64,000 nucleotides of DNA from positions 62,001 to 126,000 of the forward strand of contig NOWV01000123.1 in assembly GCA_003344405.1 (NCBI GenBank), read 5' to 3'. The notes under the pieces were generated by a model. The model did not search any database, had not been told where the DNA came from, and worked only from the letters and a program-made list of their open reading frames with translations. This document shows positions 9,801 to 30,968 of this stretch, in pieces. Both the position numbers and the translations under genes were made by a program. Positions within the stretch are counted from its first letter, which is position 1. Every line of letters begins with the position of its first letter. This DNA is from Trichoplax sp. H2. Its lineage: Eukaryota.

Positions 9801-12800
9801 TTTACTTATCATGGTATATTTGCCTCTTGTAATATTATGCAGATGCTATTAAGGGTTGATGGTAACGCAAGCCTTATGAGAGAGGAGATGGCATTTGACG
9901 AAAGTAATTTTATCATCTATTCACAACTCAGATTAAAACCATAAATTAGTGGCATTGAAGAGGAACAAGAATCTACAGTGTTATTGTACATACCATAATT
10001 ATGCTGTATGATATCATTGTATGGATGCTAAGTTTTAACTTTTATCAGTCTGTATTTGCATAGTACAAAAGTAGTAATGGATCCATTAGTTGGTAATTAA
10101 TCTTTTCAAAAAAGATCTTACACCACTAATTGTAGTAATGATGTAATAGCTTTCTATTTGACAAGGATTGTTTCATTAACATTAGTATCTTTTACTGGTT
10201 CCAGCCAATACAAAAAGCAAATATAGTTCAAAGTGATACCAAAGAACTGTAATAGCAGGAGACTATTACTCGGTCATTGCATTAATTTTTCATGAAGTAT
10301 TACGCTATTAGATTGATGTCGTATAGTATTTCGGACATTTAAAATTTATTATTGTAAAAATGTTATTAGTTTAATTTGAGATCAATTAAGCAGTTTTTGT
10401 TATTTGCTGATAAGTTTCAGTTATTGCTACAGTATAGTGAACGCAATCAGAAGCACATAGATAATAAAATTGCTATAGTCTAGACTTAAAATTGATATCT
10501 AACGGTGTTGTAAGAGATTGTAACGTAGTCATGAAATCGTAATCCTGAGATTTATGTCGATGTTGTGCAAAGCTTTAATAGAATAATCAAAATAGGAGGC
10601 GTAAAAATAAGAATACGTTTTATCGCAAATATCAAATAAACAATAAGAAATCGCTTTCAAATAATTCTGTTTTGATTATTAAAGAAATCGAAAATTAGCG
10701 CGTGTCAATAAAGACGCATGGTGAAAGCATAAGCCCTTATAATACTAAAAGTAAGCTTTTCTAAGAATTACACTATAATAATAAAAAGTGCGGTCATGGC
10801 ATTATGTTAGAATCAAGTATTTTTGGACAGCATTGTATTTCCTTGGGTGAGCTTCAAAAGAGAAAAGAAAAAGTAGTATTAAAAATTTAACATTGTATGA
10901 GAAATTCCAATCTTTGATGAATGCTCAGTAGATTTATTTAGCAATGTTTACCTTACATATGATATATACAGTACTCGTATTAACGTATTTACAATCTGAA
11001 AAAATTAAAATGGTTTGTTCTCAATTACTAACCATAGCATACTGTATAATTTAATAGCTATTTAACGTGATTAAATGCATATTTATTTCTTTACAAATCC
11101 TAGAAACACCTGCCATTAATGGTACATAAAGTTTTATGATAATCGATAAAAATCATATTATTATTCATCACGAAAGAACAATCTATTTCATTATAGTTCT
11201 AATTTTTAAAGAATAATGCCTAAGATTCTTACCATCTTTAGACTTTATTATATATTTCTCCGTTTGCTGTTAAACGATTAATCTTGAAAGCATTTATTTG
11301 TTATTAAACAATTAAATGACACCCATTTTAGGTTGAATTAACCGTGAATTTGTTATGGTGTCTTAATTTGGTACTATGATTACATAGTTAATAGATAGAT
11401 TAGTTTGTCCGGATCTTAAATTCTCTTAAAAGATTATAGTATGACTAGATTTTCTACCCATAATTTAGTGTTGTTATAAGTCTTTAAAATCCCCGTCGTG
11501 CTGCTTATAAATTATAATTTTATAATAGTTGTTGCATTATGTAAAAATTAAAGCACCACTGTTTCTAAGTCTTCAATTAAAATTCCAATTTCTATGTTCC
11601 TGTGCCAAATTTACTGCGCTTATCCTTTGCAGCCGCTAAATTTGGTGCTATAGTATCTCTAACGCCTATTTGTTAGGAGGTTTTCTATATAAGTGAAATA
11701 AATACCTGATATTCATATATATTTATTGTCTTTGGGCTTGTATATATAGTGATTCTAAATAGGGCCCAGATGTGAGGCTTAATCTCACGATTTAAGAAAG
11801 ATTAGGTGATTTAGCCAAAAGCTGTCAGTGAGAATATATCAATTGATCTGGCATTCTAAGTACTGTTTTAAGAATCATCAAAGAGAGTTTAAAGCGCAAA
11901 TATTGCTTCTAGCTTTTATTTAGTCATACTAACTTATTGCTACTTACAAACAAACATTGTCGCTAATTTCAAGCTACGGATTTGCTGTTTTGTAATTGTA
12001 CCATCAATTAAATCTAGATAGGATCTGTCTTTCACTCACCTTTCATTATCTAATTGCTTGTCAAATAGCGTCAGCAGTTTTAAAAAGCTTAATATGTTTA
12101 TGCTTACGTGAAGGGAGCATTAATGACAAAGTTAAATGTAAGGTATTGATTACGAAATTCTATATATTTAGGTGTTAATAGTTGCTGAATTCTGTGGATA
12201 ATCCTCTTTAGAAGATTAGACGTCTCAATCGGATACAGTAGGAAACTTTTCTAGAAATGCTCTGATCCTTCCTTCTACATGGGTATATGCTAATTTTTTT
12301 AGCTAGGTTACGGGTGGTACTTACGAGCCAATTTGTCTGAATAATTTATCACAGTAGAAATTTGCTTATAATTTATTAAGTAGCAAACCATAATCGATAA
12401 GATGGCTTTACATTAGTTGATTCTCTATATTGATGGGAAATAATATAAATGGTATCTTCGTTTTATTGACGATTAAAATATCTTAGACAGATGTTTTTTG
12501 CCTGTCAACTAATTTTATACCCAATGTCGATAGAATATCGACGTAAGCTGTAGTATGCTTGCGATATTGATATCAGTTGCGCGCGTTATATTAGTATTAT
12601 ATTAGTTGCTGATAGTAGGCCGTGCAGTCACTCTTTTTTTAGAGTGTAGAAGTACTTCGTAGTTTTAAGTTTTTTTTATATTTTATCAGGTCTGTTAGTT
12701 ATCAAAGTTGCCTTATTATTGTTTTGAACATCGTTTAATTGATTAAATTGATTTAAACTTAAATATATTTTATATTAAATTGATCTGAACTTAAAAAAAT

Positions 12801-13987
12801 TTTATATTAGTTGATGTTTGAAATATCTCAAGAAAATAAGTTGGTTAGATCAGTATTACAATTGTTTACGTGTAGAGATTAATAAGGACTAATACAATTA
12901 TTAATTAATTGTTAATTTATTAGTTTTAATATTTTACTTTCATATATTAACTAATTTCTTAATTAAAAGAGTTGAATTACTGATTGGAAATCTTTAATCA
13001 AAAGATTATACCTCTTGGCAATTTTCTCTAACTGACTAGAAAAGAGCCAGAATTGTGTTTGCTACGTAGTAATTTGCACAAATTTACTAATTTGGTGTTG
13101 ATATGATATTACTTTACAAACTGTAACTGGTATAGTATTTTACCGTAAAACTGAACAATAAAAACTACAAAATTGATTACGTCAACGTAAAATTCGTTGA
13201 TTCTTTTCTCTTGTTTTGCCCGGCCGTTATATTTTATGTACCTAAAGATAATATAAGCTTCTTATTATTCATTCAGTGGCTGATCTTTAACTAGGCAAGT
13301 GGGGAATTTGCTGTCTTCACAGTGTTATAATCCTGTTGCTTTTTGCCAACGGATTGATAACAATGAATGTATGGATACGTGTATTTCAGCGGTAGGTAGT
13401 GTGAAATACTAGTATTTCAAAAGCTTTGAATAGCGTATTGAGTACATTTGCATGGACCTTATTTTTTTGCTGATGCCAGAATTTTTTCGAATTTAAACAG
13501 CATTCATTTGATTTTATACTTTTTCTATTGCCTATCTCGTAGCTTCTGCTTGATTTTAATTCATGATGAGTCCATTATCTAGCTGAAGGACATATGCAAT
13601 TTACCCTTAAAGGTAATGATTTGGTTAGATTGAAAAGAGGCAATCTTTTCTACTGTATTTGTTTCGAAATATGACACATATTCATCTGGATTTGCTAACT
13701 GCGAACTGCTATGCTCATCGTATCAGCTTGATTGAATTTAATATGCCGGCTTGCTGAGGTTGTTCAGAACCGCAAGTTCATAAGTAAACAATTTTATAAA
13801 ATATGAAATGTTTATAATAAATAACGGCGTAGAATAACGACCATAAGATAATTCTGATATGGTAAGACTAATCTTTTTATTATGGTAAAATCATACCGTT
13901 ATTCAATATATCAGCGTTAGATGTTGTAGACTATGTTGATATCATTTCTAAGCGTAAAACTTTTAAAAATCATACGGAATACACTTT

Positions 13988-14100
13988 TGACCTAGATGAA
14001 CATATTATTTGTCTGCACGATACAAATGTTCCAGCTTAATTTATCTGCGTCAGCAGTTTCTAGTTAAGCCATCATACAATATGAATTTCATCTGAGATCA
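13988..14100 (-). promoter_or_regulatory. SECIS element (type II) in the 3' UTR of the DEP-PH-GPx gene
   Basis: Minus strand reads ATGAT-GGCTTAACTAG-AAA-CTGC-TGAC-GCAG-ATAAATTAAGCT-GGAA. Elements: AUGAN at 14075-14071; helix II (GGCTTAA/TTAAGCT); unpaired AAA at 14059-14057; apical mini-helix CTGC/GCAG; NGAN at 14032-14029. Lower helix TGATCTCAGATGAA..CATATTGT pairs with ATAATATG-TTCATCTAGGTCA. It lies about 160 nt downstream of the stop codon. Confidence 0.85.
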
Positions 14101-14233
14101 TATCAAGCATTAGACGGTATGATTTTAATACGTTGAGAAAGCTGATTACATGCTACTTCATTTTTCTAATAAGAAAAAAATCTAGGTAAACACATCTGTC
14201 AAATTAAGCCAATGTTTAGCGATGTGCCGGCTA

Positions 14234-17200
14234 CTATTTCAGTAATTCTTTAATAGTTTCTTCGATTTCCTGTAACAGTCATGTTATTGAAAAAGTTAAC
14301 TACAGTATATACATTGCAGAGACGAAAACGAGAAATTTAATTCTATTATTACAATAAATTAACTATTAATTAAAGTTATTGTATTTTTGATGCTTACTCA
14401 TATTTAAACAAGCAAACAGATTTATGAAGGGATTATATTTACTCACCAATGGCGCAACTGTTGGTGAGTATCGTTGAACCGGTACGCCCTCTTTATTGCA
14501 GAGAAATTTACTAAAATTCCATTTAATAAAATTTCCTAATGTCCCTGGTAAACGAGATTTCAAATATTTATACAGAGGAAGAGCCTCTGATCCATTGACT
14601 TTAATTTTACTGAAGAGCTGGAATTCAGCGTTGAAATTTTTTTCTGCAAATTCTTTTATTTCTGCGTTAGACTTAGGTTCCTGATGAAATTATTAATGCA
14701 ACAGTTATCCAATATTGCAATGTAATACGAATCGCAATATAATTTAAATATCTATTTCAATGTTACGAATGATTGATTGTACGAAGACGAGGTTAGGGCT
14801 GACAATGAGTACATTTAAGCTAATGACATAATCGACATCACTAAATCAATTTAAGGGATATTTTAATCAGTTCAGTGAAAATCTACTTCAAGTCAGGTAC
14901 GATAGCAGCGAATGTAACATATGACTGTGCCTAGCATAGTACCAGGCATAGCATTAGTATCTTCGTATCTATAGTTTTACTAGAGCCAATGAGACTTATC
15001 AATTATAATTATTCTTAATGGATGCAATCATTAGCTTTAGTAATTCATACACATTGCGGTTAGTTCTATAGTATATACTTTTATAATTAAAAGGACTATG
15101 GTTGGCTGTGTCATATCAAACTAACATAACGTACAACATTTTGGAAGTAGTGAGGTTAATGTTTTCGGATGATTTCTGAAAAGTTACTAATTTGGCGCTT
15201 TAATACAGTACTATATGCTTAATTAATTCTACCAGGATTGACTTACTTGATTTCCGAACTGGTTACAAGGGAAGCCCAGTATACGGAGTCCAGACTTTGC
15301 ATACAGCACGTGCAGTTGCTGCAGTTGAGTGTAGTTCTTTTCCGTTAGCCCTCAAAAAGACGCTACATTCACGATTAGCGTTACATATCCTCTACATTGA
15401 AAATTAAAGCTCTAAATCAATACAAATCATGATACGTAAGTGATAATGTCATACAATCTTTTGCTCAATATACGTACTTATACTTCTCCAAGCTAATTTC
15501 ATCACCGTCGATGGTATTGGCTTTAAATGGGTAAATATTTGGGGACTTCCCGATCTCTTCATTGATTTCCTATATTAGGGATAAGGGCATACCACTCATA
15601 ATTAATTAATTGTTTATTAAGAAATGAATCAATTAATTACCAGTTTCAATAAAAGTAATTATATTGTTAATAATTATAAGTTAGCCTTATAAAAAGTATT
15701 TTAACATTTAATTTCATCATTTCTAGAAAAATAAAAGACTACTTACTTCTTTACTTCTACCTATTTTTACACCCATTGCTTCTAATTTCTTCATCCAAGC
15801 TAGCTGATCATTTTCATTTGGCACTAATAGCATCATATCTATTATAACAATAATGCATATATAATGCATAAATGAGTTACGCACAAAATTTAATCTACTA
15901 GCGTTCATTACCTTAATCGATTTTATGATCAGGCAATAATATGTGCAGTTGTAACGTATTGAATACGTATTTATACTCAACGTATAGTATTACAGTATAC
16001 TAGCGCAAACGCCATATACATACTGCTAATTCGCTTTCCGTTTTCAACATTACCTTGGTACTGACTTCCTTCATCGAATGTAATTTCTATGGCAGTGTCA
16101 TCATTACTAGTTACTGAAGCAACGGTCATTTCTTTCAGAGGAAATGCCCGCTTCGGATACGGGTCCTAATCCAAAGTTTTAAGATATTCAGTATCTGTAC
16201 AATAATCTCATGCTAATTTGTCTAGTAGTATATCATGGTATCTTACCAATTCTGATCCATATTTGAAAAGAAATTCCTGAGATGGAGCGACAACATAAAA
16301 AGATCTTGAGTTCATAAACATGCCTTTTCGTTCCATATACATACTGTAAGATCCACATTCTCCGGTGACGGTTTTAGCAGATGGCCCCGTATTACTATTC
16401 GGAGGGTCTGGATATGGATACATTAAACAAAATTTTAGTGTGGAGTATTGTATTAGCTATTCAGGATAACAGTAAAATCATGATATCAATCTTACATTAA
16501 TACATAATTTTACAATTTACTTACCATCTTCTTTAAAGCGATAAAATAAGTAGCCGTCTTTGAAATTGTGATCATCGACGACATGATGGATAATACCAGT
16601 GTCTAAGATTTGCTGAAATACATTGATGGCAAATGAACAATCAATTTCATAGGTAGGCATATTTTATAGAGTAAAATTATTAGCACAATTAATTGGTAGC
16701 ACAATTATTTTATAAATTTTAAGAGTAGCGTACAAATACGAATAAAAAGAATAGTAAATCCATTATTTTGTTGCATAGATTTGTAATGTCTTTGTGTTGT
16801 AATTTTTCCTACCTGGCCAACTTTGATAGCTTCTTTGCGGTCATCCGCCAAGTTTTCTTTAACAAACCAATCAACTGCTTCACTACCTATTTTCATCGAT
16901 TGAAGGTTTTATAGTTAACAGTAACCATAATATATTGTATGTATCTATTACGAGAACATTTTATTGTTCAAAGATTATGTTACTGTATACGTTGCAATGA
17001 TACAAAAGAGTTCTGTCTGATTGCGAAAGATATTTCCGTAATAATTCACCTATAAAACATTTGGCGTATGTTCTGAAATGGTAGATCCTGTCTTTGATAG
17101 AAATACCACTGGATCCCCTAAGACGTTTAGCAATGTCTTCAGCCTGTATGCATTCATTGTAAAAAATTTTGAACGTGATTATGTTCGTTAGTACTTAAAT

Positions 17201-17344
17201 TAATAATATATATTAGTGACGATACAGTACTAAGCAATCGTCATTTGATGTAAAAATGGATTACTATAATAGTTATAGATTACAAATTGTACTTAATTAG
17301 CGGCTGAATACCTGTTCAACACTTAAGGTACAGGATGAAGACAT
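14234..17344 (-). CDS. Selenoprotein: DEP domain + PH domain + GPx4-type (phospholipid hydroperoxide) glutathione peroxidase, about 386 aa, Sec TGA at 15354-15352
   Basis: Exons (minus strand): 17344-17312, 17143-17050, 16886-16813, 16612-16525, 16407-16247, 16165-16054, 15838-15747, 15569-15478, 15391-15247, 14680-14447, 14269-14234. All introns are GT-AG and phase-compatible; total 1161 nt. [112 protein letters not shown]. GPx: [43 protein letters not shown]. Confidence 0.9.
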
Positions 17345-18820
17345 TTTGCTAATCTTTCTTACAGACGAAGAAAGGAAACGCAACAATTTGACAGAAGATG
17401 AGATTTTCTAATCTCTAGTACCGTTTTAAGGAGAATGTTAAAATATAAGTTAGTTATACGCATGAGTATTTCTATGTAAAAATTTACCCTGTACTGTAAT
17501 GTAACTGCAAAACATTTACGAATTAATCAATTATTTAATATGGTAATTATGCAGTATTATAATTCATAATCATATATATATATACACTGTACATAGAATA
17601 TATATAATCGATCTTGCAGATAATGTTGTTAATATTACTAATGACCTCTTTCGCGAGTCATGACCCCTAGAGACCTGCCCACCAAGAAGTCATGATGACG
17701 ACTAGGTACTGTACATTTAGTGTACCAGTGATACGAGTAGAACACAGCACTCTAAGTACGCTACCGTACAGTATATAGGACTGTCCTGTATTGGGGCTAT
17801 ATAGCACCGCAACGTCTGTCGCACAAAGCATACGGTATATCAATGCAGGACCATACAATGATCATGCGTTCTCGTGTAATATTAGAATTAGGGAAAATAA
17901 AATAAAATAAATTAAATTAAGATTAAAAATTTGATTTTAAATCGATAGTGTATGCCCTTAATTTAGGTTCAGCGTGTACTTCATTATGGGGCTACTAAGA
18001 AAGGAATAGTGATAGTATCACTGCCGTACATTTGATTTGACCTAAAATTTTTGTGCTAGCTACTAATGACTTGTATGAGGTTAAAACTTGTTCCAAGAAA
18101 ATCGCTGACTCGTGTCCTTTCTACCATACAATCGTGCTAGCATGTCAGTATTTCATTTCGTATTTTAGGTTGCAATATTTCTTATGGTATTAAGTTCCAA
18201 TAGCCACTTGTGAAATATGACAGAATGTTGTATTATAAACACTACATTACTATACAGTATAAGAATGAGTAGAATGGATAATAGTCACAACACTACAGTA
18301 CTGTACTCCAGTATTGTTTTTACATCACTCTTAACACTCTTAAGAAGGTTTATATAATTGGTAACTCTTTTTAAGATTCGTAGATACATATACTGTACTG
18401 TATACTAGTGTAATTACTAGCGAAGGCAATTCGCTCTGTGAAAACCAAAGTGCAGGTTTCGTCGTGGGTTATTAAGGTAAAATACTTTTAACGGTCCCTG
18501 GTTTTGCATGTGATTATTATTCTTAGGTTAAATAATAATTAATCATTATTTATAATTATTAGTACTTACTGCACAAAAGTGTTTATGTTGATTTCCAAGC
18601 TTCTAATCTGCTTGTCTGAAAGCCACGACACTGGTTTCAATCCTGAAATATCAGTGCGACACGCTTAAAAGATTCTGACGTTAGTATGCGCATGTGTTCA
18701 CGGTATGGTTTTGCACAGTATGATGAACTGTAAATTACAGTACAGTCTCTGCAATTTAAAGTGTCACCTCAGTCCGGTTTGCACTGTGGCACTGTGGCAG
18801 TTCTGTTCAAACGACTTTAG

Positions 18821-19021
18821 GTACTGTACTGTACACTGTACTGTACTGTACTGTACAGTGCACAGTACAGCGGTAGCCGTAAAGTACAGTACAGTACTGT
18901 ACAGTACTTGCAAAGACAACCACTACCGACTGCCGATCAGTGATTAATACAGTACTGTACTGTACTATTAAGGGTACTATTTAACTGGCGTGGTGAGCCT
19001 TATACTGTACTGTACACTGTA
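18821..19021. repeat. TACAG/CTGTA (GTAC-rich) low-complexity cluster
   Basis: Dense runs such as gtactgtactgtacactgtactgtactgtactgtacagtgcacagtacag. Confidence 0.85.

Positions 19022-22860: not shown

Positions 22861-30968
<8,108 letters not shown>

Follow-up and report, generated by a model that had tools for sequence, protein, structure and literature searches.

A stretch of the Trichoplax sp. H2 genome raises the question of whether a selenocysteine (Sec)-dependent peroxidase can be built into the same polypeptide as a DEP and a PH domain, which are typical modules of signalling scaffolds. The gene concerned lies on the minus strand of a 64,000-nucleotide (nt) segment of contig NOWV01000123.1 (assembly GCA_003344405.1, positions 62,001 to 126,000), hereafter called the window, and all coordinates are counted from its first letter. 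An initial annotation made from these letters alone had proposed that a DEP domain, a PH domain and a complete glutathione peroxidase (GPx) domain of the GPx4 type are joined in one frame that is interrupted only by an active-site TGA codon. GPx4 is a small single-domain enzyme and a central guard against lipid peroxidation and ferroptosis. Gene model, RNA and relatives agree in placing all three domains in a single frame, and we consider both the DEP-PH-GPx4 architecture and the decoding of the TGA codon as Sec to be nearly certain. The best explanation overall is probably that one gene yields one spliced mRNA and one selenoprotein of 386 amino acids (aa; ~44 kDa) that would carry out targeted peroxide removal.

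Gene model and transcripts

When joined by their coordinates, the 11 exons between 17344 and 14234 give a coding sequence (CDS) of 1161 nt, equivalent to 386 codons and a TAG stop, and every intron has GT..AG ends. The introns measure, in order, 168, 163, 200, 117, 81, 215, 177, 86, 566 and 177 nt. The sole internal stop is a TGA at codon 262, which falls within the GPx active-site motif ..NVASF-U-GLT.., and the limits of the domains match the limits of exons (DEP in exons 2-4, PH in exons 5-7 and GPx in exons 8-11). Intron 7, which separates the PH from the GPx exons, is a canonical GT-AG intron of 177 nt in phase 0. The phase-compatible exons, the open frame and the length of this intron are all as first proposed, and so is the claim that the GPx part lacks a separate start: no Met occurs beyond residue 209, and exons 8-11 therefore contain no in-frame ATG. 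The true start of the frame is the ATG at 17344, which is preceded by an in-frame TAG 22 codons away in the same exon, with no ATG in between. No tandem copy was found in the window, as a tblastn search with the spliced product gave only the exons of the gene itself. The window is AT-rich, with a G+C content of 27-38%.

In a search of public sequencing runs, 20 rows matched the stretch in whole or in part. Many of them contain about 0.31-0.38 of its sampled words, a fraction similar to that of its exons. Contigs from four runs belonging to four studies (X8, X9, X5 and X11) were compared with the window over positions 12500-19000. All ten predicted introns correspond to exact contig joints with CT..AC ends on the plus strand, and the joint between the PH and GPx exons (15568/15746, with 177 nt skipped) is present in all four runs, as are eight joints altogether. 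The joint 15838/16054 is absent from X8 and the joint 17142/17311 from X5, in each case because the contigs end there; every joint upstream of the PH-GPx junction is present in the contigs. Single contigs from X9 (1676 nt) and X11 (1602 nt) extend from the 5' untranslated region (UTR) to the 3' UTR through all 11 exons, and a contig of 1189 nt from X5 covers exons 2-10. Differences between contigs and window within exon 9 all fall outside the TGA codon in the four runs. Contig depth was not used for ranking expression.

Two properties of these data weigh against an unqualified reading. Only X8 is on record as RNA; the nature of X9, X5 and X11 was guessed, and we have taken them as RNA because their spliced joints argue for it. 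Furthermore, the RNA evidence consists of assembled contigs, which do not fix the starts and ends of transcripts and are compatible with a minor isoform that carries only GPx or only DEP-PH. Nevertheless, a spliced PH-GPx junction that recurs in four studies is hard to explain except by a single mRNA.

The same data bear on the possibility that the fusion is an artefact, produced by read-through or mis-assembly of a DEP-PH gene and a neighbouring GPx4 gene. It is true that a contig running across two genes is no proof of a single transcript. However, the junction is canonical and in phase in each of the four studies, exon 7 has no stop, exons 8-11 offer no Met, and the same colinear fusion exists as uninterrupted open reading frames (ORFs) in unrelated contigs and in the divergent sequences described below. 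We regard an artefact as exceedingly improbable.

Two other features of the RNA contigs deserve mention. Low-depth contigs (depth 4-8, versus hundreds for exons) from X5 and X8 cover parts of introns 9 and 6 (14785-15046 and 15831-16037); these were set aside as candidates for isoforms and probably represent unspliced RNA or DNA carry-over. In addition, single-letter variants over 13815-15805 differ by run, with, for example, those at 15286, 15297 and 15298 found in X8 and X9 and those at 15322, 15791 and 15805 found in X5 and X11. This pattern suggests that at least two strains or haplotypes are filed under the species labels.

Domains of the encoded protein

The domain named GSHPx in Pfam (PF00255, cutoff 27 bits) is complete when the TGA is read as Sec. 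Exon 9, translated in this manner, matches profile positions 21-67 with 68.9 bits, and exon 10 continues with positions 68-108 and 42.8 bits. Over 77 residues, exon 10 gives gapless alignments with the GPx of Schistosoma mansoni (2wgr and 2v1m) and with many GPX4 entries, whereas its alignments to GPx1, 2, 3, 5 and 6 are only partial. The domain is thus the short GPx4 form, which lacks the subunit-interface loop of the tetrameric GPx1-3. Exon 9 contains the motif ..FPCNQFG.. and exon 10 the motif ..KWNFSKF.., both in alignment with GPx chains; the Gln, Trp and Asn residues of the NQF and WNF motifs constitute the rest of the GPx catalytic tetrad.

A structural model was also considered for P0160, the read-through translation of a full-length homologue, for which the mean predicted local distance difference test score (pLDDT) is 81.2. 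This model superposes on 2wgr with a TMt of 0.90 and on human GPX4 with a TMt of 0.85-0.87 at ~50% identity, and it reaches only 0.72 with GPX2. The Trichoplax enzyme shares with human GPX4 and the Schistosoma GPx the thioredoxin fold, the short monomer-type form and the position of Sec in the active site, and a candidate SECIS (Sec insertion sequence) element is present in the 3' UTR of its gene. It differs in that GPX4 is a single domain of about 170-200 aa, whereas in Trichoplax about 220 residues of DEP and PH precede the peroxidase in the same polypeptide, and the peroxidase part is left without an initiator Met.

For the N-terminal domains, a database protein of the same gene could be used. 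A search with the exon-5 peptide retrieved one protein, here called P0001, which is filed as 'Glutathione peroxidase [Trichoplax sp. H2]', has 357 aa and carries precomputed Pfam tags for DEP and GSHPx. It is 100% identical to the window exons outside exon 9, where a different frame or splice is used that avoids the TGA. Because exon 9 is misread in this record, its AlphaFold model (built with a 42-sequence alignment) has no Sec helix, and the mis-annotated segment 253-270 has a pLDDT below 50. In the same model, the pLDDT is 92-98 throughout residues 11-220, and the folds of DEP and PH are thus confidently predicted. Foldseek matches to DEP and PH structures derive from the P0001 model, as a search with the model of the full-length homologue listed GPx chains only.

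Pfam assigns the DEP domain (PF00610) with 88.5 bits and an E-value of 2.8e-25, well above the cutoff of 32.7. Structures matching this part of the model include those of DEPTOR, P-Rex1 (root-mean-square deviation, or rmsd, of 1.6 Å over 87 columns, at 37% identity), RGS7 and Epac2, and a family profile compared with the PDB gave E-values of 7e-54 for the P-Rex1 DEP domain (in two stretches) and 2e-50 for the DEPTOR DEP domain. Of the three domain assignments made in the initial annotation, therefore, DEP and GSHPx stand above their Pfam cutoffs, and PH does not.

The PH region of the Trichoplax protein scores 18.1 bits with PF00169 (E-value 0.004), versus a cutoff of 25.1. This assignment is rescued by other information. 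The homologues P0002, P0003 and P0004 pass the same cutoff with 26.5, 27.3 and 39.5 bits, and the family profile matches the PH structures 1v89 (4e-12), 1eaz (1e-10) and pleckstrin 1pls (1e-9). The modelled region has seven strands and a C-terminal helix at 196-208 as assigned by DSSP, all with a pLDDT above 92, and its best structural matches are to the PH domains of DAPP1 (TMt 0.81, rmsd 2.1 Å), ARAP3 (0.73) and dynamin (0.74). Trp202 is invariant in 42 sequences. At the level of modelled fold and homology, we consider the PH assignment confirmed. There is no low-confidence linker between the two domains in the model, and for this reason DEP and PH may form one block.

What the PH domain binds is a separate matter. 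The phosphoinositide-binding signature of PH domains, located in strands beta1 and beta2, is K-Xn-(K/R)-X-R. In Trichoplax this signature is partial (R-K-G ... N-S-R), many relatives have KKG..W-N-x-R, and the sponge clade lacks the basic residue of beta2. The Trichoplax PH domain is also acidic, with an isoelectric point (pI) of 4.85; the GPx domain is basic (pI 8.67). The acidic character, the incomplete basic signature and the score below the Pfam cutoff together make phosphoinositide binding doubtful, and to this extent they count against membrane targeting through this domain.

The extreme N-terminus offers a third feature that might contribute to membrane anchoring. Among 38 family sequences that start with Met, 22 carry at least one Cys at positions 1-9, frequently in a C-x-C or CC arrangement, and the Trichoplax protein, with Cys5, is one of them. 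Such a pattern is typical of S-acylation sites, and judging from the sequences, it may represent a conserved, putative site of this type.

Relatives, selenocysteine and annotation

When residues 1-225 of P0001 were used as a query, three more proteins of 262-276 aa were found, each of which contains DEP, PH and the first 32 GSHPx positions and ends with ..NVAS-x. A profile of these three proteins and P0001 was then scored against 1.84 billion representatives, which gave 5462 matches at E-values of 0.001 or lower, mostly multi-DEP proteins. Among the 150 matches listed, 24 align as a single stretch, and 20 of these span nearly the whole profile. Of the 22 newly fetched single-stretch sequences, only P0055, a shorter fragment, does not extend to NVA[STC]x, where the other 21 terminate. 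When 21 of the sequences served as queries in a word-indexed search, 31 matches at E-values of 1e-20 or lower were obtained, of which 18 have DEP and GSHPx tags. In all, 38 of the 41 tabulated family sequences end directly before the Sec position, and the remaining three comprise P0160, which is a read-through translation, and the annotation models P0001 and P0178 (the latter from the sponge Halisarca dujardinii), both of which circumvent the codon. The fusion has at least 40 divergent relatives. The top scorers in the profile search (P0005-P0020 and others) belong to a large multi-DEP set, whose members have 400-1700 aa and 3-7 DEP-like stretches each.

Named members of the family come from the sponges Geodia barretti and H. 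dujardinii and from the choanoflagellate Salpingoeca urceolata (EukProt). Three environmental contigs serve as the deciding control. The contig L003 contains a complete DEP-PH-GPx ORF of 383 aa, uninterrupted but for a single TGA in the corresponding place, and the contigs L001 and L019 have partial ORFs of the same type with a TGA in the aligned Sec column. BLASTP aligns the spliced Trichoplax product with L003 in one segment (residues 10-381, 36% identity, E-value 6e-84), and single-segment alignments are likewise obtained with L019 (residues 5-338, 46%, E-value 7e-107) and L001 (residues 143-381, 40%). L003 is an unrelated contig, and the match of the spliced product to its unbroken ORF in one segment shows that the fusion is not due to chance. 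The DEP-PH-GPx4 fusion is conserved in sponges, a choanoflagellate and many other eukaryote transcripts.

The N-terminal parts were also placed in a maximum-likelihood tree of 41 rows, for which P0001 was trimmed at residue 247 and L019 was omitted. This tree contains a split with support of 100/99, which separates a clade of Trichoplax and three others, beside a 16-row group with the Geodia cluster, from a 21-row group that includes Salpingoeca. Given that the tree is unrooted and that few rows have species names, we use it to claim only breadth. Two results from the ESM Atlas, obtained with P0004, are given here as leads only: clusters of pleckstrins were found at 0.80, and a cluster of 541-aa oomycete proteins, all with GSHPx, was found at 0.75 and possibly represents another multi-domain GPx.

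No full-length form with Cys in place of Sec was present among the 150 listed profile matches or the 31 word-search matches, which is weak evidence that Sec is always used. The cis-acting element that Sec insertion would demand has a candidate in the 3' UTR of the Trichoplax gene. When the 481-nt 3' UTR was searched alone, the Rfam model SECIS_1 gave a full-model match at 14083-14019 (minus strand) with 21.9 bits and an E-value of 0.094, with alignment of the AUGA, of the bulged AAA and of the GA on the 3' side. The hairpin has a type 2 shape, comprising AUGA, 12 nt, AAA, a mini-stem, helix II and GA, and its AUGA at 14075 is located 159 nt past the stop. A core pattern (ATGA, AA after a further 10-13 nt, a helix of 8/8 bp immediately enclosed by the ATGA/GA pair, and a span of 34-62 nt) has a single match in 128 kb, corresponding to both strands of the window, and this match is the candidate; the mean over 50 shuffles was 0.28.

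Several observations argue against this identification. The match is below the Rfam gathering score of 35, and no SECIS was reported by Rfam at an E-value of 1 or lower when 5.5 kb (13000-18500) were searched. The core pattern was written post hoc, after the candidate had been seen. Moreover, the fold energy of the candidate is no better than that of shuffled sequences (z -1.25), and it was equalled by 24 of 200 shuffles. Counting in favour of Sec decoding, clear SECIS hairpins are present right after the stop in L003 and L019, with Rfam scores of 19.2 and 25.7 bits and fold z values of -5.2 and -5.7, respectively. We regard the Trichoplax element as a likely candidate for a SECIS. An unrelated Rfam match to the lysine riboswitch, inside exon 6, was dismissed as a chance match.

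These results also allow an evaluation of the simplest alternative to Sec decoding, in which translation ends at the TGA. Under this reading, the product would be a 261-aa DEP-PH protein with a GPx stub of 40 residues, and the exons farther downstream would persist as untranslated GPx relics. Most database ORFs do end at the TGA, and the SECIS match in the window is below threshold, both of which count in its favour. However, the frame continues for 124 more codons over three further spliced exons, with the two GSHPx matches and the NQF and WNF motifs intact. At 35-46% identity, L001, L003 and L019 also keep the read-through frame open, and in L003 and L019 the SECIS elements follow the stop of that frame. 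Trichoplax adhaerens is reported to have 28 selenoproteins, two of which are Gpx (PMC3473315). A true stop is accordingly very unlikely.

The public records of this family have gone wrong at the same codon in different ways. The initial annotation anticipated that automated annotation would probably break the gene at the TGA. This was borne out by the erroneous exon 9 of the Trichoplax record, by the Geodia record, which stops at the Sec codon, and by the Halisarca model, in which the Sec exon is skipped; the NCBI Trichoplax model nevertheless still joins DEP to GPx. The Geodia protein (CAI8030419.1, 276 aa) is named 'DEP domain-containing mTOR-interacting protein', a consequence of its truncation at the Sec codon, and a neighbouring fragment is called PHGPx. 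We rejected its designation as DEPTOR, as it has one DEP stretch only, followed by PH and GSHPx. DEPTOR, by contrast, consists of tandem DEP domains and then a PDZ domain, and tandem DEP domains also appear in PDB titles. The Halisarca protein is filed as 'glutathione peroxidase isoform 2' (QZX63201.1).

Searching of the full-text literature revealed no description of a fusion of DEP or PH with GPx. The main text of PMC3473315 does not contain 'fusion', 'fused' or 'pleckstrin', and its supplementary gene figures might show an N-terminal extension. In the available part of PMC8395497, only the expression of 'GPX-like 2' in Halisarca is given. The novelty that had been suggested for this architecture thus holds with regard to published descriptions, and not with regard to singularity: the protein belongs to a conserved family, and it is present, uncommented, in public records that carry DEP and GSHPx tags. 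In short, DEP-PH-GPx4 is an undescribed, conserved and systematically mis-annotated arrangement of well-known parts. The family has escaped notice since ORF callers truncate it at the UGA, and what is left is named for the DEP domain. Given that its members are affected by UGA truncation, the DEPTOR name or a wrong exon, selenoproteome counts and catalogues of DEP proteins are off for these lineages.

Proposed function and other features of the locus

In order from its N-terminus, the predicted protein would consist of a short segment with Cys5, the DEP domain, the PH domain, a short acidic linker and a monomeric peroxidase of the GPx4 type. Sec262, the peroxidatic residue, would be inserted at the UGA with the help of the 3' UTR SECIS, and the GPx4 domain would reduce lipid or other hydroperoxides. 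The DEP-PH block, possibly together with an S-acylated N-terminal Cys, may anchor the enzyme to a specific membrane or signalling complex, in which case the removal of peroxide would be local. The DEP domains of the nearest solved relatives serve in membrane or receptor recruitment. Such a role for DEP is also stated in the review PMC13621322. The basic character of the GPx domain likewise speaks for targeting. Read from its domains, the protein could well function in membrane- or scaffold-targeted peroxide removal, a proposal that we advance tentatively.

The main rival is a peroxide sensor that makes use of the same DEP-PH scaffold. Here the GPx4-like domain would relay its oxidation to a partner held by DEP-PH, and thereby couple hydrogen peroxide to G-protein signalling or to another signalling route instead of detoxifying lipids. 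Thiol-peroxidase relays are exemplified by yeast Gpx3/Orp1 and Yap1. The DEP and PH domains are consistent with such a role, as the nearest solved DEP domains are from P-Rex1, DEPTOR, Epac2 and RGS7, and the pleckstrin clusters mentioned above are the nearest by language model. The PH domain is acidic, and in the sponge clade the basic signature for lipid binding has been lost; both would suit the binding of protein better than that of lipid. On the other hand, the relay is without a known partner, and no Cys is seen in the stretch after the QEP motif, which is where the resolving Cys of relay-type GPxs is located. Sec is kept in 38 of 38 truncated family sequences and the GPx4-type fold is preserved, both of which are typical of efficient peroxidases. 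We therefore consider the relay unlikely, and targeted peroxide removal remains our preferred proposal.

Known proteins resemble this architecture in part. Pleckstrin (PH-DEP-PH) likewise has DEP beside PH, whereas the Trichoplax protein has one DEP, then one PH, and a C-terminal peroxidase. It also has no second PH, PDZ, RGS, DH or GEF domain, in contrast to pleckstrin, P-Rex1, DEPTOR, Epac2 and RGS7. A precedent for the linkage of DEP to a thioredoxin-fold domain, cited in the initial annotation, is indeed in print: plant class IV glutaredoxins combine GRX, DEP and DUF547, and their targeting to membrane sites is a proposal only (PMC13621322). These proteins differ in having a glutaredoxin rather than a peroxidase, no PH and no Sec, another domain order and another third domain, and nothing in this analysis suggests that the two fusions share common descent.

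With members in a choanoflagellate, sponges and a placozoan, DEP-PH-GPx4 might constitute an old, unpublished and apparently always-Sec family that predates animals and represents a second, scaffold-anchored deployment of GPx4, in lipid-peroxide defence or a signalling relay. We judge this broader picture to be about evenly balanced. If it is true, the enzyme would provide either a local defence of the ferroptosis type at a defined membrane or a relay from peroxide to signalling. A conserved GPx4 that is hard-wired to DEP and PH in early-branching animals and unicellular relatives suggests an ancient form of spatially restricted peroxide removal or sensing, and it offers a natural construct for examining how the localization of GPx4 affects its function.

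Features of the DEP-PH-GPx4 gene in the window
Feature	Position	Strand	Basis
Upstream non-coding 5' UTR exon, at least 84 nt seen	18570..18653	-	Joint 17414/18570 in X9 and X11 contigs, shorter sides 84 and 42 letters
First coding exon: 5' UTR 17414-17345, ATG 17344-17342, codons 1-11 including Cys5	17312..17414	-	Frame reading, RNA joints
Exons 2-4, DEP, residues about 24-93	17143-17050, 16886-16813, 16612-16525	-	Pfam, AlphaFold, Foldseek, RNA joints
Exons 5-7, PH, residues about 115-210	16407-16247, 16165-16054, 15838-15747	-	Model, Foldseek, Pfam of homologues
Exons 8-11, GPx4-type domain, residues about 222-386	15569-15478, 15391-15247, 14680-14447, 14269-14234	-	Pfam GSHPx, RNA joints
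Sec262, in-frame TGA in ..NVASF-U-GLT..	15352..15354	-	Joined CDS, RNA contigs, ends of family ORFs
TAG stop	14236-14234	-	Joined CDS
SECIS-like element (candidate)	14019..14083	-	Rfam SECIS_1 below gathering score, core-pattern match
3' UTR; RNA contigs extend to 13905, 13897, 13874 and 13761; AATAAA at 13881-13876	13761..14233	-	RNA contigs, which do not fix the true 3' end

The upstream 5' UTR exon is spliced to 17414 over a GT-AG intron of 1155 nt. Within the region of this exon (18570-18700) there is an upstream ORF of 18 codons, the ATG of which lies at -194 relative to the main start, in a different frame. Runs of a 5-nt repeat of the TACAG/GTACA type are located just upstream of the exon, at 18820-18910 and 18950-19020, and many RNA contigs from X8, X5 and X11 show loose ends or odd joints at these positions. 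The repeat is probably a genome-wide simple repeat that confuses assembly. Farther away, on the plus strand, an open stretch of 115 codons at 22861-23208 is protein-like and is probably an exon of a neighbouring gene.

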